A stretch of 21,502 bases of DNA, from positions 1 through 21,502 of the forward strand of contig JBKBOT010000026.1 of assembly GCA_046293555.1 (NCBI GenBank), read 5' to 3'. The DNA is from Pyrobaculum sp. (GTDB lineage: Archaea; Thermoproteota; Thermoprotei; Thermoproteales; Thermoproteaceae). Below, in pieces: positions 3,793-21,502 of the stretch. The notes beneath the pieces are model-generated. The model ran no database searches and was not told the DNA's origin. It worked only from the letters and a program-made list of their open reading frames with translations. Position 1 is the stretch's first letter. Every line of letters begins with the position of its first letter. The translations under genes were made by a program, and so were the position numbers.

Positions 3793-3894
3793 GTAAAACC
3801 CTTTGGCTTAGATTTATAAGTTTTATTACCGATAAACTCAGTAATATTAATTATTTATGTTTCTATAAAAAATTATGTATACACATATATATAT

Positions 3895-3910
3895 TTATCA
3901 AATTTGATAA
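3895..3910. promoter_or_regulatory. Perfect 16-bp palindrome, candidate transcription-factor operator
   Basis: TTATCAAATTTGATAA in the AT-rich divergent intergenic region between the YeiH transporter and radical SAM genes. Confidence 0.5.
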
Positions 3911-4017
3911 TACCTTTTCTAAGTGTAGACATAGTGATATAAATAGATAATGTTAGATAAAAATATATATTTTTGGACGTGGTCGCTCAGTATAAATATA
4001 TATTTCAATTATTAAGT

Positions 4018-4995
4018 GTGATTGCCCAAGTGGAGGTGTCTACACACTGTAACGCCATGTGTACCTACTGTCCAGTAACTATTTACCGCAGCCAGTGGGA
4101 TAGCCGTTTTATCGACACTACACTCTTCTCTAAAATAATACATGAGGGCATTGATATCATTAAACATATACATTTACAAGGTTGGGGAGAGCCGTTATTA
4201 CATCCACATTTTTCACATTTATTAAAAGAGGCAAGTCGTCTCTACAAGACAAGCTTTACTACAAACGCCACTCTGCTAAGCCGCCTGGCAGATAGAATAA
4301 TTGAGGCAGGGGTAGACGTGATGGCAGTCACCTTCGCCGGCGCTAAAGAGGAGACACACGACAGAATTAGAGTAGGGAACCCACTACGCTTGGTGACTCA
4401 CAACCTCAAAGCCTTTATAGAGAGAGCTAGATCCAATAAGCCACATGTCGTTGCTATATACATGATGTTAAGAGATACAGTAGAAGAATTGCCGCAATTT
4501 GTCGACCTAGCCGCCGCCATAGGTGTAGACGAAATTAGGTTAAGCAATCTGAGCTATATCCCACACCCAGATCTCTGGCACCTAAAGGTATACTCGCCTT
4601 TCTTCAAGCCGCCGCCACCTCACGTCTTGTCTATAATTCAGACGGCTAAAGAAAAAGCGGAGAAATACGGCATAAAGATATCCCATAGAAACTACACGCC
4701 TATAGAACACGTGGAATGTCCCGAATCCCCCACCACAACAATATACATAGACGTAAAGGGAAATGTGGCCCCATGTCCTTACCTCAGCCTAACTGGGGCT
4801 ATTAGATGTTTTGAGGGGAAATGTGAAAAACTACCCAAAGTGACATACGGCAACCTATATGAGAGTAGCCTCAAAGAGATATTAAAAAGTCGAAATTTCA
4901 AAATTTTTACAGATAAGTTTAGAAAACGTACAAACGAGTTATTTGCCCCACCCCCAGATGAATGTACAAAATGCTACCGGCTGTATTGGATCTAA
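4018..4995 (+). CDS. Radical SAM protein with C-terminal SPASM/Twitch domain
   Basis: CNAMCTYC (CxxxCxxC), LQGWGEPLLHP, FTTNATLL; C-terminal C..P...IYIDVKGNVAPC, YGNL, CTKC. Start set at GTG 4018, 27 nt after TATAAATA (3991). Confidence 0.88.
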   Translation: MIAQVEVSTHCNAMCTYCPVTIYRSQWDSRFIDTTLFSKIIHEGIDIIKHIHLQGWGEPLLHPHFSHLLKEASRLYKTSFTTNATLLSRLADRIIEAGVDVMAVTFAGAKEETHDRIRVGNPLRLVTHNLKAFIERARSNKPHVVAIYMMLRDTVEELPQFVDLAAAIGVDEIRLSNLSYIPHPDLWHLKVYSPFFKPPPPHVLSIIQTAKEKAEKYGIKISHRNYTPIEHVECPESPTTTIYIDVKGNVAPCPYLSLTGAIRCFEGKCEKLPKVTYGNLYESSLKEILKSRNFKIFTDKFRKRTNELFAPPPDECTKCYRLYWI

Positions 4996-5655: not shown

Positions 5656-6016
5656 ATGGCGTTGGTGCTCCTATTTGAAAACGCCAGATGAGCTAAAAGA
5701 ACTTACGCAATATGGTGTAAACCTCATGTCGCTATTTGAATGTACCAACATAGCCGATCTCAACGCGATTAGAGACAAGTTCGTTATAGTTGTAGAAAGT
5801 CCACAACTCGCAGAAAGACTCGGCGTTGTTAACATCACGCTAAAAGAGGCATATGAGTACTTACAGCTATTAAAAAAACACCCCCGTGACAAAAAGTCCA
5901 CACCCCACTCTTCTTCCCAAGGGGTGTTATATATAACATCTACAGCTAAGCTCGTAGGAAGTTCCGATAGTTATCAGACCCCCACAAAAGGCCTTACAGC
6001 CAAGCTTGCCATTTGA
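5656..6016 (+). pseudogene. Small hypothetical gene with a +1 frameshift near the start
   Basis: TTTAAA at 5629 is 27 nt before ATG 5656 (MALVL). Removing one C at 5670-5671 joins it to the frame YLKTPDELKEL...VIVVESPQLAERLGV. Pseudogene or sequencing error. Confidence 0.45.
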
Positions 6017-8972: not shown

Positions 8973-10085
8973 ATGAAGAAGGTATATCTGGTCATAATAA
9001 TTGTGGTTATTATAGTAATTGCGGCAGTCCTCTTACTAACCACAATGTCCAAAGGGCCTTCTCCCGCGCCTGGACTGGTTTATAAAGGGTCTAAGGAGTA
9101 CTCTTTGCCTAGCTACTACTACCAGTGGTTAAACATACCGACACAAGTCGCCGTCAGGACTTATTTTGTGGAAGGTGTAAACGCGGCAGAGGTTTTAAAT
9201 TGGTATAAGGCAGAGCTGCCACGTGTGGGTTATGAAATTCTCCAGCCGCCTGTAATCCAAACTCTTTCAACACCTCAAGGCTCTTTAGAATGGGGACTTC
9301 TTATAGCTAAGAGAGGCGATATGGGCCTTGGGGTTTGGGCTGTCAGCGGGGCACAGGTGGCGGTAGAGGGCAGACGAGGCACGTTATATCTCGTGGCTGA
9401 AGGTAACATCAAAGAATTTGTGCCGCCCGAGACCTCGACTCCTGGCGAAAAACTACCGCCGACAGACTTGGCAAGTGGAGAAGAGCCAATAGAGAGATAT
9501 CCAGGTTCTAAAATGCTCACCTACCAGAAGAGCGAGGGCTTCCCCACAGTCATAATAATTGACTACGGGACGGCAGACAACATGCAGAAAGTGGCGGAGT
9601 GGTATAAGAAGGAGCTTCAGCTCAAAGGCTGGGATATAAAAGACGAGCGGAGAAGTGCAGAAAAAATCTCTCTACATCTCATAAAAGAGAGAGAGGAGCT
9701 GGGGGTAGTAATCTACGCCCCAACAAGCGAGAGAAGCTACACCTCGATATCTATCCACTACGGCTTGTATAAACTCCCCACTAGAGACTTGGCAAGTGGA
9801 GAAGAGCCAATAGAGAGATATCCAGGTTCTATAATGCTTAGACACTCCTCGACGACGTACATGGGCGTGAAGATGATAGACATAACATACGCCACCCACG
9901 ACGGCGTAGATAAAGTAGCCTCGTGGTACGACAGCTATCTGGCGGCGAACCAATGGCAAGTCGCCACGTCGTCGGTGTCAGACGGGGCAAAGACAGTCAC
10001 CGCCTTTAAGAAAAAGGCATTTATCTCACTCACTGTCTCGCCAAAGGCAGGCTACACCGAGATAAATATTGTATACCAAGGCTAG
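8973..10085 (+). CDS. Membrane-anchored extracellular protein with three repeated ~105-aa domains
   Basis: MKK plus hydrophobic anchor; three units with Y(P/K)GS...V..WY...L...(G)W/Y pattern; AT-rich TATA region upstream. Confidence 0.85.
   Translation: MKKVYLVIIIVVIIVIAAVLLLTTMSKGPSPAPGLVYKGSKEYSLPSYYYQWLNIPTQVAVRTYFVEGVNAAEVLNWYKAELPRVGYEILQPPVIQTLSTPQGSLEWGLLIAKRGDMGLGVWAVSGAQVAVEGRRGTLYLVAEGNIKEFVPPETSTPGEKLPPTDLASGEEPIERYPGSKMLTYQKSEGFPTVIIIDYGTADNMQKVAEWYKKELQLKGWDIKDERRSAEKISLHLIKEREELGVVIYAPTSERSYTSISIHYGLYKLPTRDLASGEEPIERYPGSIMLRHSSTTYMGVKMIDITYATHDGVDKVASWYDSYLAANQWQVATSSVSDGAKTVTAFKKKAFISLTVSPKAGYTEINIVYQG
9464..9831 (+). repeat. Perfect 47-bp intragenic direct repeat (9464-9510 and 9785-9831)
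   Basis: AGACTTGGCAAGTGGAGAAGAGCCAATAGAGAGATATCCAGGTTCTA twice, offset 321 bp (107 codons), encoding DLASGEEPIERYPGS. Confidence 0.95.
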
Positions 10086-10086
10086 T

Positions 10087-11658
10087 GTGAAAAAAGCTGT
10101 GTTTTTTATACTTTTCCTATTGGCGTTAATTTTTCTAATTGCCTATTTTGATAAAAAGGAGGCGGGTTTAGAAAGTATCTCCCCCCAAAAAAAGCTTGAA
10201 AACATCCCAGAAAACTACCTGCCGCCAAAACTTCCGTGGGGGCTAGAGAGGGGCAGCGCCGAGAGTGACAATTTTTACCCCTCCACACTTCCAAGAAAGC
10301 CAAAAGTAGTCTTTGTGGCTAACATCTCTGCAAATGTCGGCGGGAGGCTAGCCACCGCCGTTGTTGAAAGAGATAAAATTTTTCTAGCCGACAGCCGGGG
10401 GGTCTACGCCCTTAGAAGAGACGACGGCTCTTTAATCTGGGGCGTAGAGATATATCTCGACAACCTTTACGAAAGAAAAACCTCCCACCCACAGCCAGTA
10501 GAGAAGTGGAAAGCTTTAGGCCTGCAGAAGTTTGTCAAAACTTATGGAGTGGGGAAACACCTCTATGTAGCCACCACGTCAGATAAAGGAGAGGCCTATC
10601 TCCTCGCCTTTGATAAAGACACAGGCGACCTCATGTGGAAAACCGCGCTTAAGCCCGGCGGCCTGCCTCCCACCACAGATCTTGTGGTGACAGAGGGGAG
10701 AGTTTACGTAAGTAGCGGGGGTTATATCTACTGCGTCTCTGAAGACGGCCTCCTCCTCTGGCGTAGCGAAGTTGAGACAGAGGCCAGAGGCTTAGCCTAC
10801 GGCGGCGAGATGTTATTTGTAACATCCTCTAAGAAGCTTTATGCACTTGATGCAAAAACTGGCGAAGTTCTTTGGGTTTTTAAACACGACAACGTCTTAG
10901 CCACGCCGTCTTACAGAAGAGAAAAAATAATCCTATCTGACCTAGAGGGAGCCCTCCTGGCGCTTTCTAAAGACGGAAAACTTCTCTGGAAAAACCACCT
11001 GGGGGACGGAGGCCTCCACCTTGCGGTAAATACCCAAAATATCTTTGCGGCGGGGAGGGGAGTAAGTATCTTCACGCTAGATGGGGAAGCTAGGGGAAAC
11101 TTTACAACAGATGGCGAAGAGGGAGGAAGGCCGGTGGCGTCACGAGACGTGGTTATCCTGCCTGTGGCGAGACGTGGCGAGGGCAAGATCTACTTACTGT
11201 GGCGTGGTTGGGCAAAACTCGCCGAATTTATTTTTGACAACCAGGAGGTGTGGACGCCTACAGTCAGCGCCGCCTATGGTGAAATATATGTAGTTCCAAA
11301 TCCAAACCAGTTATACAAACTAGCCGACGTGGAAAAACCCCAGATAGCCGCCGTAGAGGCCAAGCTACAGAACAACACCTTAGTTCTCTATGTAAAGGCT
11401 TATGACGAGGGAAGCGCCATATATAAAGTCCTCCTAGCCTATAGCATAAACAACTCGCCATGGGGCTATATAGAGATGGAAATTGCAAAAAGATACGTCA
11501 CAGAGCCCACCGGCGGTTATGGCCTTAGAGAAGAAGACTACATAACCGCAATAGAGGCACAACCAGGCTCAACTATAGAATTTTACATCGTGGCTATAGA
11601 CAACTCTGGAAATTACGAAATTTCAAAAAACTACGCCTACCGCATCTCCCAACAATAA
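10087..11658 (+). CDS. Membrane-anchored PQQ-like beta-propeller repeat protein with probable C-terminal Ig-like domain
   Basis: Repeats ALRRDDGSLIW, AFDKDTGDLMW, ALDAKTGEVLW, ALSKDGKLLW; N-terminal KK plus TM; C-terminal EFYIVAIDNSGN. Start GTG 10087, 1 nt after the upstream stop. Confidence 0.85.
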   Translation: MKKAVFFILFLLALIFLIAYFDKKEAGLESISPQKKLENIPENYLPPKLPWGLERGSAESDNFYPSTLPRKPKVVFVANISANVGGRLATAVVERDKIFLADSRGVYALRRDDGSLIWGVEIYLDNLYERKTSHPQPVEKWKALGLQKFVKTYGVGKHLYVATTSDKGEAYLLAFDKDTGDLMWKTALKPGGLPPTTDLVVTEGRVYVSSGGYIYCVSEDGLLLWRSEVETEARGLAYGGEMLFVTSSKKLYALDAKTGEVLWVFKHDNVLATPSYRREKIILSDLEGALLALSKDGKLLWKNHLGDGGLHLAVNTQNIFAAGRGVSIFTLDGEARGNFTTDGEEGGRPVASRDVVILPVARRGEGKIYLLWRGWAKLAEFIFDNQEVWTPTVSAAYGEIYVVPNPNQLYKLADVEKPQIAAVEAKLQNNTLVLYVKAYDEGSAIYKVLLAYSINNSPWGYIEMEIAKRYVTEPTGGYGLREEDYITAIEAQPGSTIEFYIVAIDNSGNYEISKNYAYRISQQ

Positions 11659-12094: not shown

Positions 12095-12389
12095 TCGCCG
12101 TGTTTTTTCGCCGTGTTAGAGGGTGCCCCCTAACACAGCAACCCGCCAGACAACACGCCGCCGATAGAACTTTGTAAAGTGTGGCGTACCTCCCGTTTTT
12201 CTTTATAACGTAAGCTTTATATATTGATTTTACATTTGTCTACCCCCCTCGCCGTGTTAAAGCATTTAAAAAACGTCGTGCAACTTCCTCTTTACTTTTG
12301 TATACTATATATCGGTAAAGGGGATATGTGTATTTGTAAAGAGTTATCCAATTTATAAAACGTCGTGCAGCTTGAACCACGACGTCGAC
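12095..12389. repeat. Cluster of short direct and inverted repeats
   Basis: TCGCCGTGTT x3 (12095, 12108, 12249); imperfect IR 12110-12139; 23-mer ATTTAwAAAACGTCGTGCArCTT x2 (12264, 12351; 21/23 identical); 8-bp IR ACGTCGTG/CACGACGT (12360-12385). Confidence 0.8.
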
Positions 12390-12617
12390 GCCGAGACAAA
12401 CTGTCACGATGTAGACCACTCAAAAAATAACGGCGTGCCGAAAGAAATTAGAAAAACTTTGAAACTAGGCAAACACAGAAAAAGCCATGCGGCGTGTAAA
12501 ACCCCAAGACAGCGAGAGAAAAACTTAAAAACCCCCAAAAACAATTATCCAGAAACCCCAGAATCTCAAAGAGAGGATTGAAAGACGGCCATGTCCACGG
12601 GCTGGCCCTTCTAGCCT

Positions 12618-12874
12618 CACGCCATTGGCGTGGACTATATCCTTTTTCTTTTTCTCTCTCAACCCCGGGGGATGTGCCCCCGGGGGGCTTAGCCCCCGTC
12701 TGGCCCCACGCCAATGGTGAGTGTATCCTAATTCTCTATCTTTATCTCTAGCCACCCACCACGGGGGCGGCTGACTCCACGCCATCGTTATCAGGGGATC
12801 TTTCTTTCTCTCTTTTTCTTTCTCTCTTAGCCCTGGGGATGTGCCCCCGTGGGGCTAACCCCCATCTTACGCCA
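12618..12874. repeat. Two diverged copies of a pyrimidine-tract plus GC-rich hairpin unit
   Basis: Exact core GGGGATGTGCCCCCG at 12668 and 12835, each preceded by CTTTTTCTT..TCTCTC and followed by GGGGCT..CCCCC..ACGCCA. Confidence 0.8.
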
Positions 12875-12937
12875 CTGCCCTGACGCCGTATTTGTGATAT
12901 AAGTGTATTACATGTGTATTACGTTTTGAGAGACATC

Positions 12938-12950
12938 ACTGTTATAAATA
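12938..12950 (+). promoter_or_regulatory. Island promoter, copy 1 (extended TATA only)
   Basis: ACTGTTATAAATA 30 nt before ATG 12968; 12938-12962 is identical (25 nt) to 15608-15632. Confidence 0.8.
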
Positions 12951-12967
12951 TGGACGTTTCTATAGAC

Positions 12968-14101
12968 ATGGCCCAAACTCAAACCCCAGAACAAACAGTT
13001 GATCAACAAACGGTTATGAAGGATGTATGGCAGTTGATACGTAAGGACGTTGCTAATGTATTAGCCACAGAGCTTGACGAGGAAATTGCAAACGAATGTA
13101 CTGAGGCATTTTCATACTGTAGAACCGCGATTACGGGGTTGTGGATGGATTGGGATGGCGATGGTCCTGGTAAAAATGATCAGTTTGTGATGGATGTCAG
13201 ATGCGGCGATTATGATTGGCTAGAAGAGACGCTTTGTCATAATGAAGAAGATGATGAAGAAGGCGAGAAGGATGAAGAGGGTAGAGGGAGGAAACTCGGA
13301 GATATTTACGTCAATGTTAACGCTATTGACGTTGCTGTTGAATATATACTTGACTACTACAACCTGCCCCTCACAGAGGACGAATTGCTATACGCCATGT
13401 ACAAAGTAGCGCAAGAAGATGCCAACCTTGTGGCGCACATGGTGGCATACACTGCCGTGACGCCTATTTTGAGCTGGGCTAACGATCATGAGAAGCTGGG
13501 TGAGGCTGATGAATATGTGCGACAGTTTGCCGGTAAAGTTGTCGAAATGGGATTATACAATTATCCAGAGCTGCGTGAGTACGCCGATGGCATGGAGCCC
13601 GAGGAGGGTATATTTGTCCGCTTGACGGCTAACGGCCTCGATGACGTTTTCAGAAAAATAACTCCACAGTTTGCAAATGTATATCGTTATGCTAGGCCAG
13701 ATTCGGGTGAATGTTGGATATACTTCCATGATACAATAAGAATATGTAAAGACGAAAGTGAAGATAATAGATATGGGAGATTCACATACAAGGTCACAGT
13801 GGAGCACGATGGTCATACGTATAGTTATTACATCGATCCCTTGGATTTCACCAAGGTCATCGTGGAGACATTTAGCTATATATTCGACGTGGGGTACGTG
13901 GAGATGAGTAGAGCTCTCAGGAGGTTCATCGACGAGAACCCACGGTATGTTGTACCGATGGTGGAATATGCAATCGCCAAAAGGTGGCGTGATTTAAAAC
14001 TAACGCCTAGTGAGGAAGTGATTAAATACATCGACAAGTTTGAAGAATTTTTAGACAAATACATCGGCGTTGAGGAAGACGTTGAGGAAGATCAACAATA
14101 A
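12968..14101 (+). CDS. Acidic hypothetical protein (377 aa), probably two copies of a domain shared with 15638-16231
   Basis: Start moved to ATG 12968 on promoter spacing; D/E-rich (NEEDDEEGEKDEEG, EEDVEEDQQ); followed by a pyrimidine tract. Confidence 0.85.
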   Translation: MAQTQTPEQTVDQQTVMKDVWQLIRKDVANVLATELDEEIANECTEAFSYCRTAITGLWMDWDGDGPGKNDQFVMDVRCGDYDWLEETLCHNEEDDEEGEKDEEGRGRKLGDIYVNVNAIDVAVEYILDYYNLPLTEDELLYAMYKVAQEDANLVAHMVAYTAVTPILSWANDHEKLGEADEYVRQFAGKVVEMGLYNYPELREYADGMEPEEGIFVRLTANGLDDVFRKITPQFANVYRYARPDSGECWIYFHDTIRICKDESEDNRYGRFTYKVTVEHDGHTYSYYIDPLDFTKVIVETFSYIFDVGYVEMSRALRRFIDENPRYVVPMVEYAIAKRWRDLKLTPSEEVIKYIDKFEEFLDKYIGVEEDVEEDQQ

Positions 14102-14160
14102 CCCCTCTTTTTTCCCACCCTCCTTTTTCTCTCATTCCCCTAGCCCACTCTTTTTTCTTT
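14102..14160 (+). terminator. Pyrimidine-rich terminator
   Basis: TAA-CCCCTCTTTTTTCCCACCCTCCTTTTTCTCTC directly after the stop. Confidence 0.6.
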
Positions 14161-14318
14161 AGTTCATTAACCTTGCTATATCCTAAATCTTTCTCTCCCT
14201 CTCCCAGGCTGTGAGTTATCTCTCTCTTTTAACCCCCCTTTTCTACATCGGTGTGTTACGTCAGTTGTCTATATGCGCCATTGGCGCCTCTTTGTATATA
14301 TCAAAATTGTCCCGGCCA

Positions 14319-14363
14319 AAGTTATGTAATATCTCTACTTGTCGAACTTGACTGTTATAAATA
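14319..14363 (+). promoter_or_regulatory. Island promoter, copy 2 (full)
   Basis: AAGTTATGTAATATCTCTACTTGTCGAACTTGACTGTTATAAATA; 40/45 identical to 15576-15620. Confidence 0.85.
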
Positions 14364-14380
14364 ACTGCATTTAAAATTCC

Positions 14381-15487
14381 ATGGATTGGGTATATGATAT
14401 AAAGGCAGCTAGAGAGGTGGTGAATAGTGGTAAATTCAGCGTTGTTACCCACGGCGGCGTGGCCCATATGGATGACCTGCTTGCATCGGCCCTTCTGTAC
14501 AAACACACAGAAGCTGTGTACAGGCTGAATAGTTACGATGAAGTTGTTAGTGTGCCCGGCAACGTCCTCCTTGTGGACTTCGGCGATGCGTTTAGAGACA
14601 GGCTGCCGGAACGTTTCGCCGTGCTTGACCACCACGGCGCGCCGGATCCAGCCGCAGAACCATCATCCATAGTGCAGGTAGCAATGCTTCTAGATGTAAA
14701 ATCATCACCAATGGTGGTCACATTGACACATTTCGTAGACCTATTCGACCGTTTTGGAGTCTCTGTGAAGAAAATCGCAGGGCACTACGGCAGCTCTATG
14801 AACTTCGCCTTCACAAAATACTTTAGTGATTTCCACGGCCGTGTTTCAGACAGAATGTTAGAGTTATTGTCAGAAGCATATATGTCGAAAGTCGACGTGG
14901 GGTATGTCGAACTCTTCAACGCGTTTCAAATAGTGGAGAGACTGCCATACGGCCATCTGACTGAGATATTCCAACAAACCTTCACCCTGCTTAGACTTAT
15001 GCAGCGTGCCGCCAGAGACCCCTCTGTGGCTCTATCAAAAGAGGCTATCAACATCGGTTTTGGTATCGACTTCGGCTGTTATGCTGTGCTGGCAGTTCCG
15101 GAGCTTGAGCGTTATGCTCTCCAGGGTCTTGACAGATACTTCTCAGACGCCAAACGCGCTGCAGAGACAATTGTTAATAACAACTACATCGAGATAAAAC
15201 ATGGCGATATTACCGCTATCGCCATAGAGGACGCACTGCCGCCCATTTTACTTTGGCAGGCTTTGCAAGATTTAGACCGTGTGGAGAGTCCTACATTCGT
15301 TGTTGTAAGAGACTTAAGGAACCCTGGTGCGTATGCCGTCTGGAGGCCAAACGTATATGCGAACAAGATAGACTTCCGAAAGCTGTCCGGCGATTCTGTT
15401 ATCTTCAAACACAACACGGGCTTTATGGCTGTGGTAAAAGCAAAAAGCGCCGAGGAGGCGGCACGGCTTGTCTCACAACAGCTCTAA
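14381..15487 (+). CDS. MYG1-like (UPF0160) DHH-superfamily metal-dependent hydrolase/exonuclease
   Basis: VVTHGGVAHMDDLLASALL (MYG1 THxGxxHxD), LLVDFG, VLDHH, FVDLFD, and C-terminal IFKHNTGFMA (MYG1 FxHxxGF). Confidence 0.8.
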   Translation: MDWVYDIKAAREVVNSGKFSVVTHGGVAHMDDLLASALLYKHTEAVYRLNSYDEVVSVPGNVLLVDFGDAFRDRLPERFAVLDHHGAPDPAAEPSSIVQVAMLLDVKSSPMVVTLTHFVDLFDRFGVSVKKIAGHYGSSMNFAFTKYFSDFHGRVSDRMLELLSEAYMSKVDVGYVELFNAFQIVERLPYGHLTEIFQQTFTLLRLMQRAARDPSVALSKEAINIGFGIDFGCYAVLAVPELERYALQGLDRYFSDAKRAAETIVNNNYIEIKHGDITAIAIEDALPPILLWQALQDLDRVESPTFVVVRDLRNPGAYAVWRPNVYANKIDFRKLSGDSVIFKHNTGFMAVVKAKSAEEAARLVSQQL

Positions 15488-15550
15488 CCCCCGTTTTTTC
15501 AAACCTCTTCTTTTTCTATTTTTGTCTATTTACGCCATCTCTCTTTCTTT
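15488..15550 (+). terminator. Pyrimidine-rich terminator
   Basis: TAA-CCCCCGTTTTTTCAAACCTCTTCTTTTTCT. Confidence 0.6.
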
Positions 15551-15575
15551 ATACATATCCAAACTGCTCTTGCTG

Positions 15576-15620
15576 AAGTTGTGTAATATCTCTAACTGTC
15601 GAACGTAACTGTTATAAATA
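15576..15620 (+). promoter_or_regulatory. Island promoter, copy 3 (full)
   Basis: AAGTTGTGTAATATCTCTAACTGTCGAACGTAACTGTTATAAATA; motifs at -55/-40/-30 to ATG 15638. Confidence 0.85.
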
Positions 15621-15637
15621 TGGACGTTTCTAATAAC

Positions 15638-16231
15638 ATGGCTCAAACAGAACAAATAACACAAGTACAACAGACAGTACAAACGATATTAAAACACTGG
15701 AAGTCCATTAAGCCGCATATTGCCGATGTTTTCAGGGAAAATGAATATGACGAGCGTGTGTTAGATGCAAATGAGGAGGATAACAAATGGGTTGGCATCT
15801 ACGTTGTAGAGGGTAATGAAACTCCGCCCGAGAATGCTAAACTCGCAGTTAAGATCAGCTGTGGTAGATATGTAAAGTACATATTACCTAAAGAGCTCTA
15901 TGGTGACGAAGAGGAGGTTGAAATAAGTTGTAAAGGCGGTTTTAAAATCTACATAGACCTACAGCGGTTTGTAGAGGCTGTCGCAGGTTTTGTAGCAGAT
16001 GAGCTAGAAGTTGAGGAAGGCGATGTATTAAAAAAGCTTGAATTCCTTGCGCAACATTACCCACGGCAATTCGCTGAGATAGTTGTACCAATCGCAATCG
16101 CCTTGGGCCCCGACGTCGAGGCCGACTTACAACCAGATGCTTATTATCACGCCTTTGGTCTCATATGCCGAGAGTTATCCCTTGAAGCCGAAGTCTGTGA
16201 GGAGGTTGAAAAACATCCATTTTCTAAATAA
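15638..16231 (+). CDS. Acidic hypothetical protein (197 aa), paralog of 12968-14101
   Basis: Same 5' flank and MAQT..QQTV N-terminus; KISCGRY vs DVRCGDY; start by promoter spacing. Confidence 0.85.
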   Translation: MAQTEQITQVQQTVQTILKHWKSIKPHIADVFRENEYDERVLDANEEDNKWVGIYVVEGNETPPENAKLAVKISCGRYVKYILPKELYGDEEEVEISCKGGFKIYIDLQRFVEAVAGFVADELEVEEGDVLKKLEFLAQHYPRQFAEIVVPIAIALGPDVEADLQPDAYYHAFGLICRELSLEAEVCEEVEKHPFSK

Positions 16232-16325
16232 ACCCTTTTTTCAACCCCCCTTTTTCTCTCTTTTCTTTCCACCCTCTTTTCTCATTTTTTTAAAAAAAAA
16301 GTAGGGTGGATGGGGGAGAAAAAAT
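16232..16325. terminator. Bidirectional terminator region between convergent genes
   Basis: Pyrimidine tract then T7 (16285-16291) abutting A9 (16292-16300), followed by a purine tract. Confidence 0.6.
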
Positions 16326-16613
16326 TTATGTTTTTGATAGGAAGTGTTGTATTACCGAGTCGGAGGCGGCGCCTGCAAGCTGGAATAATAAGTACATAAG
16401 AAGGAGGAATGCGATGAACTTCAAAAGCTCGCGCTGTATGTCCTTCTTTCTACTTTTCCTCCTGCCGTTTTTCTTACTTCTGCTTTCCCTTTTGCCATTT
16501 TTCACAACCTTTACGCTTGTGACTATGCCGTTTTCTCCCCTCTTGCCGTTTTTCTTTTTGTCGTTTACAACTACGACGACACTCTCCCCATCCTTTTCCT
16601 TTTTCTTTTCCAT
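16326..16613 (-). CDS. Small Lys/Arg-rich protein with C-terminal TM helix (95 aa)
   Basis: Very basic N-terminus and LLKFIAFLLLMYLLFQLAG helix; minus-strand TATATAAATA at -27 and GTAATATC at exactly -55 as in the other island promoters. Confidence 0.7.
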   Translation of the reverse strand: MEKKKEKDGESVVVVVNDKKKNGKRGENGIVTSVKVVKNGKRESRSKKNGRRKSRKKDIQRELLKFIAFLLLMYLLFQLAGAASDSVIQHFLSKT

Positions 16614-16630
16614 GTTTTTAATACTGTGTG

Positions 16631-16668
16631 TATTTATATACGTGTTGTTCTGTTTTTGTCGATATTAC
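16631..16668 (-). promoter_or_regulatory. Island promoter variant on minus strand
   Basis: GTAATATC (16668-16661) at -55 and TATATAAATA (16640-16631) before ATG 16613. Confidence 0.65.
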
Positions 16669-16739
16669 CTACGTCTTTGGCCGGATGTTGCTTGTGGCTT
16701 GATGTGTCTGCCGCCGTATGTTCGGCATCCTCGTCTATA

Positions 16740-16784
16740 GTCGTATGTAATATCTCTATCCGTCGAACTTCACTGTTATAAATA
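16740..16784 (+). promoter_or_regulatory. Island promoter, copy 4 (full)
   Basis: GTCGTATGTAATATCTCTATCCGTCGAACTTCACTGTTATAAATA; -55/-40/-30 to ATG 16802. Confidence 0.85.
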
Positions 16785-16801
16785 CACATACATTTATTGT
16801 T

Positions 16802-17368
16802 ATGTTAAACACAATCCCTGGAATAAAAATCGCTAATGTTCAAAAGCTTAAACAAACAAATGAGCTCCCCATCTTGTGGCTGGGGGAGAAAAACGTGGCA
16901 ATTAACGCCAGCGGTTTTGGCTACATGGTCGAAGTGCCACACAACGTTTTTGCCAAGTTTGGACTCACGTGGAACAACGCGGTATATCCAAAGCTGCCCT
17001 ACGTGACTGCAGTTCAATACGTCGAGAGGGTCATCGGGGCCGTCAAGCCGTTTGCCCCCGGCGTCTACATCGTGGCCGGGGGGGTGCCGCCTATGGTCGT
17101 CAAGGCGGAAAACGTCATAAAGGTACACAGGAAAAACATAACCACAGCCACATCTCGCCACGGCCACATCATCGTACCATCTGGGATTGGCAACACGGCA
17201 AACGCGGTTGTGGGCAGGCCTGTAGACCTCTTTACAAATGTTGTGGACACCACAAACATGAAGGCCATACTGTACGTGCCCCCGGTGCGCCTGCTTGTGT
17301 TATGCGGCGAAATTTACGCGGTGCCCAAGGGCGAGAAGATTCCCAACTTCGACGAGGTGCCATGCTAG
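16802..17368 (+). CDS. Hypothetical protein (188 aa)
   Basis: ATG at conserved promoter distance; protein-like composition; no family recognised. Confidence 0.8.
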   Translation: MLNTIPGIKIANVQKLKQTNELPILWLGEKNVAINASGFGYMVEVPHNVFAKFGLTWNNAVYPKLPYVTAVQYVERVIGAVKPFAPGVYIVAGGVPPMVVKAENVIKVHRKNITTATSRHGHIIVPSGIGNTANAVVGRPVDLFTNVVDTTNMKAILYVPPVRLLVLCGEIYAVPKGEKIPNFDEVPC

Positions 17369-17748
17369 CCAGCACAGTTGTTGAGTACAGCAAACCACTC
17401 CCCGTATTGTTATTAAAAGAAGATAGAGTGGCCACGGCTGGCTTTGGCTATGCGGTGAGGTTTATAACAGATAGAGACCCCGGCGAGCTCTACATTGCTG
17501 TGTACTACACATTGTTAAAAACGTCTAATTTGTGTATCGCTTATTTTGACTCGCTTAATAACAAGATTAGAAAGAGTAAAAGATGTGTTGATTACGGACG
17601 TGACATAAAGGCGAGAAGGCGTTTGTATTTCCACGAGAGGCGACGGCCGTATGATGTGTATTTACACATAAGAGCAAATGATTATATAGGCATAGCGGGC
17701 GATTGGCATAATCAGGACTTCACGTCATACGTCTACATACTTCTCTAA
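17362..17748 (+). CDS. Hypothetical protein (128 aa), translationally coupled to and partly similar to the upstream gene
   Basis: ATG 17362 with SD-like GAGGTG (17354-17359), overlapping the upstream TAG; the longer ORF-track N-terminus is a shadow frame; followed by TAACCCCCCTTTTTC. Confidence 0.75.
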   Translation: MLASTVVEYSKPLPVLLLKEDRVATAGFGYAVRFITDRDPGELYIAVYYTLLKTSNLCIAYFDSLNNKIRKSKRCVDYGRDIKARRRLYFHERRRPYDVYLHIRANDYIGIAGDWHNQDFTSYVYILL

Positions 17749-17811
17749 CCCCCCTTTTTCCCTTCCCCCTCCCCCTCTTTTCTTTAACCTCTTTCCTCGA
17801 TTACATGTTTT

Positions 17812-17856
17812 GTCGTATGTAATATCTTTATCTGTCGATAGAAACCTTTATAAATA
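17812..17856 (+). promoter_or_regulatory. Island promoter, copy 5
   Basis: GTCGTATGTAATATCTTTATCTGTCGATAGAAACCTTTATAAATA; GTAATATC -55, GTCGA -40, TTATAAATA -26 to ATG 17874. Confidence 0.8.
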
Positions 17857-17873
17857 CTTACATTTTTACATCC

Positions 17874-18611
17874 ATGGAAGGGAGAATTACGGCAAAGGTC
17901 AGAGACCTAGACGCAATGCTTTCTGCCGTAGAGGCTGTAAATAAATATGCCGTATTACACTTTAGGGAAAATGGCGTATACGTGGGACAGATGGACCAGG
18001 GAAAGAACGTCTTCATGAAGATGTTTGTCAGTAAAAGCTTCTTCCAATCATACAGCTCACCTGGCATTACCGCCGTAACGGATGTGGTCACACTCAAGGA
18101 GTTAGTTAAGGCGTTAAAACAACAATTCGTTGAGATTGTAATACATGATGACGTCATTCACATCGCTGACCAAACGGTGAAGGCTGACGAATATGTTGAG
18201 GATTATGTCGATTTAGAGGTAAAAGATGTGTTTACAGTTGTTGGATTAGACGCATCGCCTACAGAGCTTAAGAAGTTTATCGCCACGCTTGACGACTTCT
18301 TTGTGGAGAAAATCGATATGTCTATAGACAAAAAGATTACGAAAATTACGGGAAGGCTTGACGGCAGGTATGTCTTTGAGGCTACATATGAAAACAACTC
18401 ACATGACGGCAGGGAACAAGCATCTGCATCATATAGCGTACGTTTGTTGACATTGCCGCTAGGGGCTATTTCCAAGGTGGCAAACATCATAAGGCTTTAC
18501 ACCTTCAAGGTCGGCGTTGGTGAAAAGGGACTTTTGATGTTATACCTAGAGGATAGGTATGTTAACGAGTACATAAAACTTGTGTACTACATAACACCGA
18601 GGATTGATTGA
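17874..18611 (+). CDS. Divergent PCNA-like DNA polymerase sliding clamp
   Basis: 245 aa (PCNA size); N-terminal AVLHFRENGVYVGQMDQGKNVFMKMFVSKSFFQSY matches the PCNA pattern, as do ASASYS and C-terminal KLVYYITPRID (cf. LxYYLAPxIE). Confidence 0.8.
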   Translation: MEGRITAKVRDLDAMLSAVEAVNKYAVLHFRENGVYVGQMDQGKNVFMKMFVSKSFFQSYSSPGITAVTDVVTLKELVKALKQQFVEIVIHDDVIHIADQTVKADEYVEDYVDLEVKDVFTVVGLDASPTELKKFIATLDDFFVEKIDMSIDKKITKITGRLDGRYVFEATYENNSHDGREQASASYSVRLLTLPLGAISKVANIIRLYTFKVGVGEKGLLMLYLEDRYVNEYIKLVYYITPRID

Positions 18612-18633
18612 AAAAAAAATCCTTTTTTTTTTT
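18612..18633. terminator. Bidirectional A-run/T-run terminator
   Basis: A9-TCC-T13 spanning the convergent stops of the PCNA-like and Hsp20 genes. Confidence 0.65.
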
Positions 18634-18990
18634 TTAGTCTATCCTTATTTTAAACCACTTCTTCTTTTTCGGTAGCTCTACAGACAAGACTCCGTTTTTG
18701 TATGTAGTCCTTGCCCCATCTGGCTCTACTGTATCCGGCAGCTTTATCTCGTAGTACCTCCGCCCGTCGGATACAATGAGGAGATCTCTCAGCCCTATCT
18801 CGTAACGCTTCCGCCCATCGGACTCAACGAAGAGATCTCTAAACACGTTTACAGCGATATCACGTGCGCCAGGGAGTTCCATGGTCACAACAATCTTATC
18901 GCCATAGTCAATCACGTCTACGATGTTGTCTTGCTGTGTATCGCAACCGCGACAAGGCATCCGCCTCCTCCATATATCTCCAGGTGCCAT
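18634..18990 (-). CDS. hsp20: Hsp20/alpha-crystallin family protein with internal 17-aa tandem duplication
   Basis: VDVIDYGDKIVVTMELPG, YEIKLPDTVEPD, TTYKNGVLSVELPK; start ATG 18990 with TTTAAATA at -27 and GTCGA at -40. Confidence 0.85.
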   Translation of the reverse strand: MAPGDIWRRRMPCRGCDTQQDNIVDVIDYGDKIVVTMELPGARDIAVNVFRDLFVESDGRKRYEIGLRDLLIVSDGRRYYEIKLPDTVEPDGARTTYKNGVLSVELPKKKKWFKIRID

Positions 18991-19054
18991 GGAGTTAATA
19001 ATATACGCATATTTAAAGTTTTCTGTCGACAAAAAACGGAAATATTTACTGCAG

Positions 19055-19432
19055 TTATTGTAACACAAATCGACGGATGTAAGAAAAGTCCAGCTTCTCC
19101 ACCTCGATGGTCAAAACGCCGTTGTCATATGTGGCCTTCAAGGTGTCTGGATCCACCTCGTGGACGAGATCAACTCTGTAGATAAGCCTTCGATTGCCCC
19201 CCTTGGCCCTCACCTCTATACTGCGTCTGTTCTTCCCAACTTTTATCTTTATGTCGTCTTTCTTGACGTCTTGTGGAAACCTCGCCACAACCCTCACCCT
19301 GTCTCCAAGGTCGTCAACTTTTGGTGTGGAATTATCTACATCACAACAAACTTCTAGAGGTATTGGCATTTTAATCGTGCGACATGTCCCCTCGTACCCT
19401 TTGCATAACCACTCCGCTATCCAGGTTAGCAT
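19055..19432 (-). CDS. hsp20: Hsp20/alpha-crystallin family protein
   Basis: DLGDRVRVVARFP, VKKDDIKI, EVDPDTLKATYDNGVLTIEVEK; ATG 19432 overlaps the upstream stop (start uncertain). Confidence 0.82.
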   Translation of the reverse strand: MLTWIAEWLCKGYEGTCRTIKMPIPLEVCCDVDNSTPKVDDLGDRVRVVARFPQDVKKDDIKIKVGKNRRSIEVRAKGGNRRLIYRVDLVHEVDPDTLKATYDNGVLTIEVEKLDFSYIRRFVLQ

Positions 19433-20343
19433 GGAGATAAACATATGTTTAAAAGCCTGTCGGCATAGATCTCATAAAGCCTCCTAAAGGCAGCAGGCCG
19501 TGGCGACATCTCTGACCTCAACGTCACCCATGCATTCACCAACGCCCTGTATTCAAATTTGTCCAACCCCCCAAAGAAGTTATCCACAAGGGGGAAACCA
19601 GTCTCTCTTAAGAAGCGATATAGCTCTTCAAGCTCGCCATCTTTGGGCTTGGCCTTGCCGAACCTCACCTCCCTATTTGTGACATGTCTCTCGCCTCCGC
19701 CAGGCAGAATGACCTTACCATATGCAGCCTTCAGACGCCATGTGGCCGCATCTGTCGTATCTACACCCAAGGCCCTAAGTATGGGCGTCACGGCCGGGCT
19801 GCCGAGGCCAAACACATGTAGCCTGCCTTTAAACCGCCGCCTGGCGGCTTCGATAATGGTGAGGGCATGGCGGCGGGACGTCCCCCTGGTGGTGAGGACA
19901 TACGGCACAGCCCCGCCGATGGCGAGAGCAGGCGCGTTTTCATACCTCTCTAAATACTCTAGAGATAGCTTGCGGTCCTTATAGACATGTAACACGGGCA
20001 CAACCTCCATCGTCTTGGACAGCTTCAACCAGTTTTCATACGACCTTTCGAGCTTCTTTCTTGCTAACTCAGGCGGGTCTTGTGGTGTGGGAGGCACGTC
20101 CAGGGAGAAGTAGAGATCTGCGTCCACACTTTGGTATATTCTAACTATATATTGTACATCCACAGGGATACCCCTCCTCATGACCTGGTAGCCGCCTGAG
20201 TCGAGCCAAAGTTCGCCGTCATATTGTAACATGGATCGGGGATCGCCCCTCACCTCCAAGGCGTTTATGAGTAGGGCTGGTACCCTGAAGTACAGCCAGG
20301 GCTTGGGGCTGGCCTTAATGGGCGTGCCCAATGCGATTTTCAT
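19426..20343 (-). CDS. tRNA-guanine transglycosylase (TGT)-fold protein, short and DpdA-like
   Basis: LWLDSGGYQ, FSLDVPP, VVPVLH, LAIGG, LHVFGLG, GVDTTDAATW; no CxCxxC Zn site and no PUA domain. Confidence 0.8.
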   Translation of the reverse strand: MKIALGTPIKASPKPWLYFRVPALLINALEVRGDPRSMLQYDGELWLDSGGYQVMRRGIPVDVQYIVRIYQSVDADLYFSLDVPPTPQDPPELARKKLERSYENWLKLSKTMEVVPVLHVYKDRKLSLEYLERYENAPALAIGGAVPYVLTTRGTSRRHALTIIEAARRRFKGRLHVFGLGSPAVTPILRALGVDTTDAATWRLKAAYGKVILPGGGERHVTNREVRFGKAKPKDGELEELYRFLRETGFPLVDNFFGGLDKFEYRALVNAWVTLRSEMSPRPAAFRRLYEIYADRLLNICLSPC

Positions 20344-20347
20344 TAAA

Positions 20348-20584
20348 TTATTCTACCCCTCTGTCACGCACCCCCCTCGCCCCGGCCGGCCTATGGCGCA
20401 CCGCCTCGCGGGCAGGGTATTCCTGCGATCTATATTTGTCGAGAAATTTCCACAACGCGGTGCGGACCACCTCGCCGCGGTTTGGAAACAACCCGATCTC
20501 TATGAGGTAGTCAATTTGTTCTAAGTCCTCTTTCGGCACTTTGGCTGCTACTACACCAGTTTCAACTAGACGTCTCCTAGGCAT
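20348..20584 (-). CDS. Ribbon-helix-helix (CopG/Arc/MetJ) DNA-binding protein
   Basis: VVAAKVPKEDLEQIDYLIEIGLFPNRGEVVRTAL matches the archaeal RHH pattern. Confidence 0.85.
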   Translation of the reverse strand: MPRRRLVETGVVAAKVPKEDLEQIDYLIEIGLFPNRGEVVRTALWKFLDKYRSQEYPAREAVRHRPAGARGVRDRGVE

Positions 20585-20613
20585 GTTTTAAACATAGTAC
20601 ATATTTTTAAACT
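20585..20613. promoter_or_regulatory. Compact 29-bp bidirectional promoter
   Basis: TTTAAA at 20587-20592 and 20606-20611, each 27 nt from the distal divergent ATG (20614 and 20584). Confidence 0.65.
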
Positions 20614-20898
20614 ATGTGGCGGTGGTTCTACCTGGCGGCCGAGGTGGGCGTCGCCGTGTTGTATAGCCTCCTACTAGCCGTGGTTGTTTTCTACACGTTG
20701 GCTTTTGGCGTGGCGTATAAACTCCTTGGCATATATGCCGTATGGATATATATACTGTTTATCGTGTTGACTATATTTGCCGCCATGGGGATGATGTACA
20801 TATTGATTTGCAACCACGGCAAAAGGGCGGCGGTAAGGCTGTTGGCATACTACTCCACAATTGTCATGATGGCTACAACCATGGTATGGGTCCTATAG
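20614..20898 (+). CDS. Small three-TM membrane protein
   Basis: 94 aa, three hydrophobic segments; TATA at -27. Confidence 0.7.
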   Translation: MWRWFYLAAEVGVAVLYSLLLAVVVFYTLAFGVAYKLLGIYAVWIYILFIVLTIFAAMGMMYILICNHGKRAAVRLLAYYSTIVMMATTMVWVL

Positions 20899-20932
20899 CA
20901 TGTGGTTTAAATACGTATAAGGTTTTTTGGAT

Positions 20933-21304
20933 GTGAGTCAGGAGGATTACATAAAGGCCGAGGCGCTTGCCTACAAGATATTCGAGACCGTGGGCGAGAG
21001 GTATATGAACGACGTCGTTGAGGAACACGGGGAGGAGATTATAGACAGACTCCGCGAGCTCGCGCCAATGTTAGGCGGCAGGGTGAGGACGATAGGTCGC
21101 GTCAAGGAGTTTGAGCTCGACGAATCGACGGCAGATGTGGTTGACGCCGTCATAAAAGAGGAGCTGGAGGGGTTGAAAAGACAGTTTGTCGACGAGGTGG
21201 TTCCACGTATTATTGAAAAGCTGCGGGCCAGACTGGCGGAGAGAGCTCCCCACAGGAGGTTTGAGCCGCGGGAGGTTGAGCCTCGAGAGAGGGAGTTAGA
21301 TTAA
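20933..21304 (+). CDS. Hypothetical charged helical protein
   Basis: E/R-rich ORF; start reassigned to GTG 20933, 27 nt after TTTAAATA (20906). Confidence 0.75.
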   Translation: MSQEDYIKAEALAYKIFETVGERYMNDVVEEHGEEIIDRLRELAPMLGGRVRTIGRVKEFELDESTADVVDAVIKEELEGLKRQFVDEVVPRIIEKLRARLAERAPHRRFEPREVEPRERELD

Positions 21305-21314
21305 TACGTCTTTT

Positions 21315-21337
21315 GTCGAGGTTAACTGTTATAAATA
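21315..21337 (+). promoter_or_regulatory. Island promoter, copy 6 (GTCGA plus extended TATA)
   Basis: GTCGAGGTTAACTGTTATAAATA; -40/-30 to ATG 21355. Confidence 0.8.
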
Positions 21338-21354
21338 AAAGTTTTTTTATTTCC

Positions 21355-21502
21355 ATGGAGACTGTCGGTGGAGATATACCAAGCGTTTCAAACAACACTA
21401 CCAAACGATCTACAGCGATGTTGGGACTCATCGCAATTGTGGCGTTTATGGCCATCGTAATAGCAATGGCGCTTTCTGTATACGTCCTACCCGCCGGGGT
21501 TG
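21355..21502 (+). CDS. Membrane-anchored hypothetical protein, 5' part (runs off window; not in ORF track)
   Basis: METVGGDIPSVSNNTTKRSTAMLGLIAIVAFMAIVIAMALSVYVLPAGV..., open to the end of the window, with the conserved promoter upstream. Confidence 0.7.
   Translation, partial: METVGGDIPSVSNNTTKRSTAMLGLIAIVAFMAIVIAMALSVYVLPAGV

Follow-up and report, generated by a model that had tools for sequence, protein, structure and literature searches.

Why should eight start codons in one part of an archaeal contig all stand behind the same ~60 nucleotides? The DNA in question, referred to here as the window, is the whole of contig C26 (21,502 nucleotides) of a Pyrobaculum sp. assembly made up of 145 contigs and 1.75 Mb, and the shared sequence, which we call the ‘cassette’, runs 5' to 3' as TATGTAATATC, 7 nt, GTCGAAC, ACTGTTATAAATA, 17 nt and then (C)ATGG. 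We suggest that the cassette is probably an element-specific, leaderless promoter class, belonging to a virus- or plasmid-like element of a Pyrobaculum-type archaeon and read with the help of one or more element-specific factors; a suggestion built from sequence comparison.

That the pattern stands far above chance expectation is plain from the counts. The 13-mer ACTGTTATAAATA occurs exactly at 12938, 14351, 15608, 16772 and 21325, every copy ending 17 nt 5' of an ATG, and when up to two mismatches are allowed it has eight matches in the window against 0.60 expected, a number reached in none of 100 shuffles; five of its seven genome-wide copies fall within these 8.4 kb. The word GTAATATC is found exactly, 55 nt 5' of ATGs, at 14326, 15583, 16747 and 17819 on the plus strand and at 16661-16668 on the minus strand, a sixth exact copy being intragenic (15206-15213, minus strand), and GTCGA lies 40 nt 5' of the ATGs at 14381, 15638, 16802, 17874, 21355 and, on the minus strand, 18990. 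All of the coordinates that a first-pass annotation of this DNA had given for these three words hold. GTCGA alone is frequent (2354 copies genome-wide, 46 of them on C26); taken in combination, all four genome-wide copies of GTAATATC-N7-GTCGA and all five of GTCGA-N9-TTATAAATA lie on this contig.

A 41-nt position-weight matrix was trained on the eight window copies and run across the genome at a threshold of 12 bits, with the reversed sequence as a control. There were 31 matches, as against 13 in the control, where the highest score was 20.7 bits; the 12 genomic matches above that ceiling comprise the eight window copies, bound to match a matrix trained on them, and four on a second contig of the assembly, C35. 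None of these 12 lies in the left 12 kb of the window, in line with the earlier statement that no such architecture is to be seen there. Listed by position, with related copies on contig C123 and on the public metagenome contig L015 mentioned where a subtype is shared, the eight are:

12910 to 12950, plus strand: promoter copy 1 (28.8 bits), in which only the TATA part is ACTGTTATAAATA and the upstream part is of another subtype, like that of C123 and of L015:1821 (minus strand); ATG at 12968.
14323 to 14363, plus strand: promoter copy 2 (57.0 bits), full tripartite form; ATG at 14381.
15580 to 15620, plus strand: promoter copy 3 (56.8 bits), full tripartite form; ATG at 15638.
16631 to 16671, minus strand: promoter copy 4 (37.1 bits), box 1 GTAATATC with a TATATAAATA variant and a degenerate -40 box, a subtype also seen at L015:869 (minus strand); ATG at 16613, minus strand.
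16744 to 16784, plus strand: promoter copy 5 (57.6 bits), full tripartite form; ATG at 16802.
17816 to 17856, plus strand: promoter copy 6 (54.4 bits), full form with ACCTTTATAAATA; ATG at 17874.
19008 to 19048, minus strand: promoter copy 7 (35.2 bits), GTCGA with TTTAAATA, box 1 degenerate; ATG at 18990, minus strand.
21297 to 21337, plus strand: promoter copy 8 (44.0 bits), GTCGA with the exact 13-mer, box 1 degenerate; ATG at 21355.

Alignment of 17 copies (eight from the window, four from C35, one from C123 and four from L015) gives the consensus TatgTAaTaTC, ~7 nt, TGTCGAA, ~4 nt, aACtgTTATAAATA, 17 nt, cATGG, in which the conserved blocks keep a fixed spacing and the spacer sequences vary. 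Pairwise identity is raised only from -60 to -1 (0.63-0.80, against ~0.47-0.64 in the adjacent segments under the same scoring), and GTCGAAC sits 8-14 nt 5' of the TATA box. The main subtype of the window reads GTAATATCTCTA; a second, GTAATATCGAC...ACGTATATAAAT, is found at 16613 (minus strand) and in L015, and a third, ...TTACGTTTTGA..., at 12968, on C123 and at L015:1821 (minus strand). At the other end of the units, a C/T-rich tract with runs of T (repeat family D4; 14102-14140, 15488-15525, 16232-16300, 17749-17800 and 18612-18636) comes after every cassette gene and is probably a terminator, and an A9...T13 stretch lies between the convergent PCNA-like and Hsp20 genes; with the exception of the overlapping pair at 16802 and 17362, the units look monocistronic. 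In the frames of 12968 and 15638 the first ATG (12950 and 15620, respectively) falls inside the TATA box itself (ATAAATATGG), so that gene callers probably start both genes 18 nt too early.

How much of this is ordinary, and how much is private to the cassette? In a host profile compiled from the regions upstream of 735 long open reading frames on host contigs, an AT-rich box lies at -26 to -20 from the ATG, the bases at -32 to -30 are rich in A, and 68% of the starts have a pyrimidine at -1. In the cassette, TTATAAATA occupies -26 to -18 and seven of the eight window copies show C-A at -1/+1, in agreement with the host's leaderless TATA geometry. The first-pass annotation had spoken of a ‘position-fixed’ promoter: the fixed distance to the ATG is real, but neither it nor the C-A at -1/+1 is special, because host leaderless genes share them. 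As to the TFB-recognition element (BRE), 172 of 1117 host upstream regions could be anchored on a TATA-like 8-mer, and in these the bases -5 to -3 from the TATA box show A at 0.48, 0.52 and 0.56; the ACTG of the cassette occurs in just one of the 172, and the A-rich BRE of the host is absent from the cassette. In all five GTCGA-N9-TTATAAATA copies the base at -3 from the TATA box is C, and that at -6 is T, T, T, A and T. For comparison, the rule for strong Sulfolobus promoters, as given in the available part of PMC11065993, is G at -6 and A at -3. The earlier remark that the bases before the TATA box do not form a purine-rich BRE is thereby borne out, and the private parts of the cassette are the BRE position, with C where the host prefers A, and the two upstream boxes.

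The same privacy is seen when the search is widened. The exact tripartite pattern has no copy in the collections viral_contigs, genome_contigs and metagenome_contigs. With up to three mismatches, a search of 62 genomes of the order, this one included, gave six matches here (four on C26 and two on C35), one three-mismatch match in another genome (G004), which is at noise level, and one control match; none of the 61 other genomes held a clear copy of the cassette by this search. Beyond the ‘island’, as we shall call the cassette-bearing right-hand part of the window (12585-21502), clear copies are confined to C35 (four), C123 (one, weak) and L015 (three above the control ceiling and two weaker). 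The shorter pattern GTCGA-N5-13-mer picked out 12 metagenomic loci, of which six are one unrelated conserved sequence, five are singletons without the architecture and the last is L015. A pattern for the GTAATATCGAC subtype had no match in viral_contigs and six single matches in bacterial genomes, which we take as chance, and blastn of one cassette against 50,697 phage and virus records returned only chance-level matches (E >= 2), all to bacterial phages. Across the genome, the order and the public collections, the motif is found on C26, C35, L015 and, weakly, C123; the claim that it is private to one element, here extended to its kin, stands on the matrix scan, the two-box combinations (four of four and five of five) and the 62-genome search.

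L015 (6021 bp) is of particular value to the argument. Its copies lie at 1812 (30.3 bits) and 2989 (41.3 bits) on the plus strand and at 869 (29.4 bits) on the minus strand, with weaker ones at 860 (plus strand) and 1821 (minus strand) that score 15.1 and 12.2 bits, under the 20.7-bit control ceiling; together they form two divergent promoter pairs with the ATG 17-18 nt after the TATA box. By tblastx the contig has no match to this genome at 1e-5. The boxes have therefore been kept while the coding sequence diverged past detection, which argues for selection on the boxes. Some of the L015 gene products begin M-x-Q-T-(E)Q, as do those at 12968, at 15638 and on C123.

Other contigs of the assembly that are targeted by its own CRISPR spacers carry recurrent promoter words of a different kind (GACGTATATAT eight times on C25 and GATATAAATAC five times on C21). 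Promoter-like words of their own are seen on C25, C19, C21 and C41, all spacer-targeted: on C25, for example, (A/G)GTGACGTATATATA lies ~17-22 nt before starts, and on C21 GATATAAATACGTCA is accompanied by conserved upstream boxes. Elements of this sort seem generally to have promoter ‘flavours’ of their own.

What, then, is the DNA that carries the cassette? The left 12 kb of the window consists of ordinary host genes (MFS, metallo-beta-lactamase, TenA, radical SAM, TauE and PQQ propeller), and its tetranucleotide correlation with large host contigs is 0.93-0.94. The island (12585-21502) correlates with those same contigs at 0.72-0.76, as against 0.86-0.92 with C35, C21, C25 and C19, each of which is matched by the assembly's own CRISPR spacers (297 in all); four of the spacers hit C35, over 47/47, 50/51, 38/39 and 30/31 aligned bases. 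The G+C content of the right part (12501-21502) is 46.5%, compared with 52.4% for the genome. The island is, on its sequence signature, foreign DNA. Its left border is

12170 to 12584, plus strand: CRISPR leader followed by one exact repeat (12561-12584; Rfam CRISPR-DR45, 37.2 bits against a gathering score of 37).

The sequence before this repeat is homologous to the leaders of other arrays in the assembly. A leader with a solitary repeat is also seen at C4:21441, C17:9624 and C37:373 (minus strand), and several arrays begin behind DNA that is not leader (C123, C128, C46 and C103); it may be that mobile elements have come to lie within CRISPR arrays in this assembly, perhaps through recombination at a repeat of their own. 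The sole sequencing run found to contain this stretch is the likely source run, of DNA, and no RNA run was found that does; in the source run, depth is equal across the border (18.4 in the host flank and 16-19 in the island). A low-depth (5.5) array piece of the same run, not found among the arrays of the assembly, holds between two CRISPR repeats a spacer equal to window 16511-16553, from which it follows that some cells of the sample target the island. C123 (L005, 876 bp) has on its minus strand a promoter of the 12968/15638 type and a 190-aa open frame that runs into a CRISPR repeat, followed by spacers; a 1116-nt contig of the source run appears to link the C123 gene, by way of the repeat, to window 12585-12914, only its loose end being confirmed as C123. 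That contig would be a circular or tandem junction, and the whole fits, without proving, an element that carries one CRISPR repeat and is present both inside an array and in circular or tandem form, the alternative being an assembly join at the repeat.

A candidate for the factor that reads the cassette is encoded on C35 (L004, 14.9 kb), whose four matrix matches lie at 2456 (39.8 bits), 5687 (39.0 bits), 3159 (22.7 bits) and, on the minus strand, 10016 (23.5 bits):

C35, 5744 to 6562: TFIIB-family gene (272 aa), behind the 39.0-bit promoter copy at 5687.

The product of this gene contains two cyclin-like TFIIB repeats (Pfam PF00382, 8.5e-14, above cut-off), both of which were recovered in the genome search, and aligns with residues 30-287 of human TFIIB (5.9e-12) and with Pyrococcus TFBc (1D3U/1AIS, 1.2e-9). 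Towards the N-terminus it keeps the second zinc knuckle (CVECG) and an EWR motif; Zn-ribbon Pfam matches are under cut-off. The helix that corresponds in the alignment to the BRE-reading helix of TFIIB reads TEVTVRN in host TFB1, TSPSSIKE in the C35 protein and SPPAVKQ in a homologue on C21. An exhaustive search with the C35 protein (1.84 billion representatives) gave 549 matches at 1e-3, the best non-self one being the C21 TFB (34% identity, 1e-18); the two (C35 5744-6562 and C21, L027 1229-2077) are mutual closest relatives and have S-P-x-x-(I/V)-K in common in that helix. A word-indexed protein search with the C35 TFB returned only itself, and tblastn against the 50,697 phage and virus records gave nothing at E 0.01. 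Pyrobaculum species normally have two tfb genes, according to the part of PMC3388794 available to us. This assembly has the usual two (on C5 and C18), a short open frame (C2) and two more on the spacer-targeted contigs C21 and C35.

Synthesising these observations, we propose a model for how the cassette might be read. Host TBP would bind TTATAAATA, 26 to 18 nt 5' of the ATG, just as in host genes, and transcription would start at or next to the A of (C)ATGG, to give leaderless mRNAs from single-gene cassettes that would end in the pyrimidine-rich terminators. The ACTG at the usual place of the BRE, together with the boxes GTCGAAC (-40) and TATGTAATATC (-55), would serve as recognition sites for one or more element factors that recruit or replace host TFB, and unrelated genes would in this way be expressed as one class. 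The lead candidate for reading the proximal part is the divergent C35 TFB homologue, with its own gene behind the same promoter class; the distal boxes are more likely to be bound by a small sequence-specific protein. We would add, tentatively and as a possibility that we rate well below the model as a whole, that an element TFB whose BRE-reading helix has changed guides the host's RNA polymerase to non-purine BREs of a private class (ACTG, possibly together with GTCGAAC) and in so doing sets up an orthogonal programme. Were this the case, archaea would have an equivalent of the sigma factors that phages encode and of the TBP/TFIIB-like factor of poxviruses, and a clade of mobile-element TFBs with altered promoter specificity would have its first members in the TFBs of C35 and C21.

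Several points weigh against this model. The -55 and -40 boxes lie farther upstream than TFB usually reaches. In the C35 TFB the linker is shorter by ~13 residues and the first zinc knuckle reads C-x-H instead of C-x-x-C, such that the protein may be an impaired or non-initiating form, or a modulator. No correspondence was found between the C21 TFB and the promoter word of C21, the recurrent word on that contig being different from the cassette, and on the other spacer-targeted contigs with private promoter words no TFB gene was found. C35 may itself be a related but separate element: it is hit by the four near-perfect host spacers, none of which hits the island, its link with the island is one of paralogy rather than continuation, and no contig overlap joins C26, C35 and C123, the only overlap being one of 39 nt between C35 and C61. 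Nor were capsid, replication or integrase genes recognised among the open reading frames scanned, which counts against a virus or plasmid identity; for such an identity speak the foreign tetranucleotide signature, the virus-type DpdA-like gene and the spacers against C35 and 16511-16553.

Among the other explanations, the one that survives best, though we think it unlikely, is that the upstream boxes are operators: they would bind a repressor of the element, like Aca8 of SIRV2 or F55 of SSV1, which turns off strong early promoters after infection or silences the integrated element, and the promoter itself would be driven by host TBP and TFB. Conserved flanks of virus early promoters have been ascribed to Aca-type repressors in the part of PMC11065993 at hand. 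The island and C35 both encode ribbon-helix-helix (RHH) and helix-turn-helix proteins, and the equal depth of island and host flank makes a quiescent integrated copy plausible. Box 1 and box 2 of the GTAATATCGAC form (L015 and C35:2456), when the aligned rows are compared by eye, make up an inverted repeat, TCGAC-N4-GTCGA, of the sort that is typical of dimeric RHH or helix-turn-helix operators; in the main window subtype, however, TCTCT replaces the left half-site and there is no palindrome. The position of the boxes is also awkward, for they lie upstream of the BRE and TATA box without overlap, whereas characterised archaeal repressors occlude TBP/TFB or RNA polymerase (PMC5569661, in the portion available); nor does the BRE position conform to the strong, purine-rich kind found in such early promoters by the rule in PMC11065993.

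Shared descent is a less probable explanation again, and one that we regard as improbable: a single promoter-terminator module would have been copied by duplication, recombination or gene conversion, the promoter being a plain host-type TATA promoter with no dedicated factor. The homology does extend, weakly, to TTACGCCAT ~100 nt 5' of the ATG and to the pyrimidine-rich terminators, the 12968 and 15638 promoters share 87% identity across 46 nt that take in the first codons, and TATA position and start context are host-normal. Saying this, the mismatches are unevenly spread, with identical boxes and variable spacers, the C at an A-preferred BRE position is kept in five of five exact copies, and the persistence of boxes and spacing in L015, discussed above, speaks for selection rather than for mere copying.

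We give very little credence to an RNA element, in which transcription would begin farther upstream and the conserved 60 nt would be a shared 5' leader (a riboregulator or a site for an RNA-binding protein), and reject it on the want of a consensus structure: a weakly conserved GTATATAT-like word ~85 nt 5' of some ATGs is to be set against zero predicted consensus pairs in the eight copies, no Rfam family match in the intergenic regions and a TATA box that sits exactly at the host leaderless position.

The element-specific promoter class is thus the reading we carry forward, and the genes that would be governed by it are a mixed company. The cassette genes of the island are:

12968 to 14101, plus strand: 377-aa gene of no known family, with weak paralogues on C30 and C73.
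14381 to 15487, plus strand: 368-aa gene of a Thermoproteaceae-wide family (40 relatives, some called DHHA1 phosphoesterase, and one with PF03690).
15638 to 16231, plus strand: 197-aa gene of no known family.
16326 to 16613, minus strand: 95-aa open frame, lysine-rich and with a hydrophobic tail, of uncertain coding status.
16802 to 17368 (188 aa) and 17362 to 17748 (128 aa), plus strand: two overlapping genes of no known family, probably on one transcript.
17874 to 18611, plus strand: 245-aa gene for a divergent PCNA-like sliding clamp, under curated cut-offs (Hus1 0.0035; NF002221 7.3e-5; 27% identity to a copy on C52).
18634 to 18990, minus strand: 118-aa gene of the Hsp20 family (PF00011, 4e-6, above cut-off).
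21355 to 21502, plus strand: first part of a gene for a membrane-type protein; the contig stops within it.

The following genes of the island have no cassette:

19055 to 19444, minus strand: second Hsp20/CS gene.
19426 to 20343, minus strand: DpdA-like transglycosylase gene (phrog_887, 2.6e-22).
20348 to 20584, minus strand: gene for an RHH regulator (CdrS-like, 4.7e-8, under its cut-off).
20614 and 21005, plus strand: two small genes.

The island must, from these last, have at least two promoter classes. When the 18 products of promoter-bearing genes (window, C35, C123 and L015) were compared by blastp at E 0.05, a single homologous pair emerged, namely the 16802 product and that of C35:5187; the 188-aa protein thus has a 30%-identical paralogue on C35, directly upstream of the TFB gene. 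The idea that the promoter travels with its gene was rejected: the 14381 gene has three ~60%-identical paralogues (C41:6488, C23:14627 and C25:10410), all with unrelated upstream regions and without the cassette, and the promoter hence belongs to the locus and not to the gene. That the cargo genes are unrelated, as first proposed, is therefore supported, and so is their location on a mobile element, given the foreign tetranucleotide signature of the island and its virus-type DpdA-like gene. The DpdA-like protein has matches in 80 phage and virus records (best STSV1, 35.9% identity, 6e-41; also SIRVs and phages of E. coli and Cellulophaga) and paralogues of 76% on C21 and 70% on C1; elsewhere its family inserts 7-deazaguanines into DNA. 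The 368-aa DHH/MYG1-like protein is present in four copies in this one assembly, at least two of them on spacer-targeted contigs, and its family is found in Pyrobaculum and Thermoproteus chromosomes.

Other searches with these proteins were negative. By tblastn against the 50,697 phage and virus records nothing was found for the PCNA-like protein, the 368-aa protein, the C35 TFB or a 365-aa protein of C35; a related-locus search with the 368-aa protein or the C35 TFB gave no relatives; PADLOC had no match for four window proteins, and nothing of use came from the ESM Atlas for the proteins of 188 and 377 aa.

Some further genes of C35 may be mentioned. Behind the 22.7-bit promoter copy, at 3217-4188 on the plus strand, is a gene for a Cas8a/Csa4-like protein (Pfam 7.5e-30; PADLOC Cas8a 9.1e-25) with paralogues on C52 (two), C50 (two) and C79, the C35 protein being a candidate decoy of the type I-A large subunit. 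An 838-aa proline-rich protein, which runs from C35 11936-14452 into C61, has many NRPRNLID-x-E-x-x-TVPQLERNK repeats, and these probably broke the assembly at the C35/C61 junction. Two small basic proteins (~57-60 aa, M-x-K-L-x-FYDV...SPYTG; C35 2046-2228, minus strand, and 9998-10171, plus strand) have 50-59%-identical copies on C9, C23, C66, C52 and C19; no tool gave them a name, and we presume a resemblance to the Thermoproteales chromatin protein CC1.

What does such a promoter class mean more widely? To our knowledge, no archaeal virus possesses an RNA polymerase, and the takeover of host transcription by such viruses is largely unexplained. A promoter core that deviates from the host's BRE preference, together with an element-borne TFB gene behind the same class, offers a test case for a change of promoter specificity by the TFBs of mobile elements. 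The motif is useful in practice as well. Through it, three contigs of this assembly and a public metagenome contig could be tied together where protein searches failed to do so, and it picks out genes of the element family that are candidates for co-regulation, the Cas8a-like candidate decoy among them.

As regards known systems, in promoters of the TFB-RF1/Ptr2 layout a conserved site stands directly upstream of a BRE that is weak or atypical, and GTCGAAC, at 8-14 nt upstream of the TATA box, would fit such a layout. Ptr2 (Methanocaldococcus) and TFB-RF1 (Pyrococcus) are described in the available part of PMC5569661 as activators that act upstream of weak promoters by recruiting TBP and TFB. 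Theirs, unlike that of the cassette, are host regulons with known proteins. Another partial parallel is the GTC motif of SIRV1 and SIRV2 promoters, which lies downstream of the TATA box (Kessler et al. 2004, cited in PMC5569661); it too is a virus-specific cis element on a host-type TATA promoter and is found in most promoters of one virus, but it is a trinucleotide, and has neither upstream boxes nor a changed BRE. TFB homologues have been annotated in a subset of rudiviruses, JinchiV1 and PBV300, and a queuine tRNA-ribosyltransferase-like gene occurs in viruses of this group as well (PMC13700489; bioRxiv 10.1101/2020.01.16.907410). These, like the present case, are elements of hyperthermophilic archaea with a TFIIB-family gene of their own (same sources); the parts of both texts available here link no viral TFB to a private promoter, and no dedicated literature search was made on this point.

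The closest likeness is to viruses of the Sulfolobales. Virus-specific regulatory sequences, shared by unrelated single early genes, have been described for SIRV2, SIFV2, SMVs, SSVs (SSV T6) and some metagenome contigs (Bhoobalan-Chitty et al. 2024, PMC11065993); in the text available to us they serve to predict anti-defence genes, have canonical TATA cores with a strong, purine-rich BRE, and have flanks that are ascribed to Aca-type regulators. The cassette is like them in that a near-identical promoter with conserved flanks stands before several unrelated, mostly single genes, each element having its own ‘flavour’, and in that most of the genes have no known function and some are anti-defence candidates (here the Cas8a-like protein of C35 and the DpdA-like protein of the island). 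It differs in its BRE, which is not A-rich (C at -3, T or A at -6), in its conserved flanks, which are two upstream boxes at -40 and -55, and in its host, a Pyrobaculum-type archaeon. PMC11065993 also has two ‘Thermoprotei’ contig motifs. Private promoters of elements are, then, already published for archaeal viruses (PMC11065993, as far as the available part goes), and what is new here is the atypical BRE position, the two upstream boxes and the linked TFB gene.

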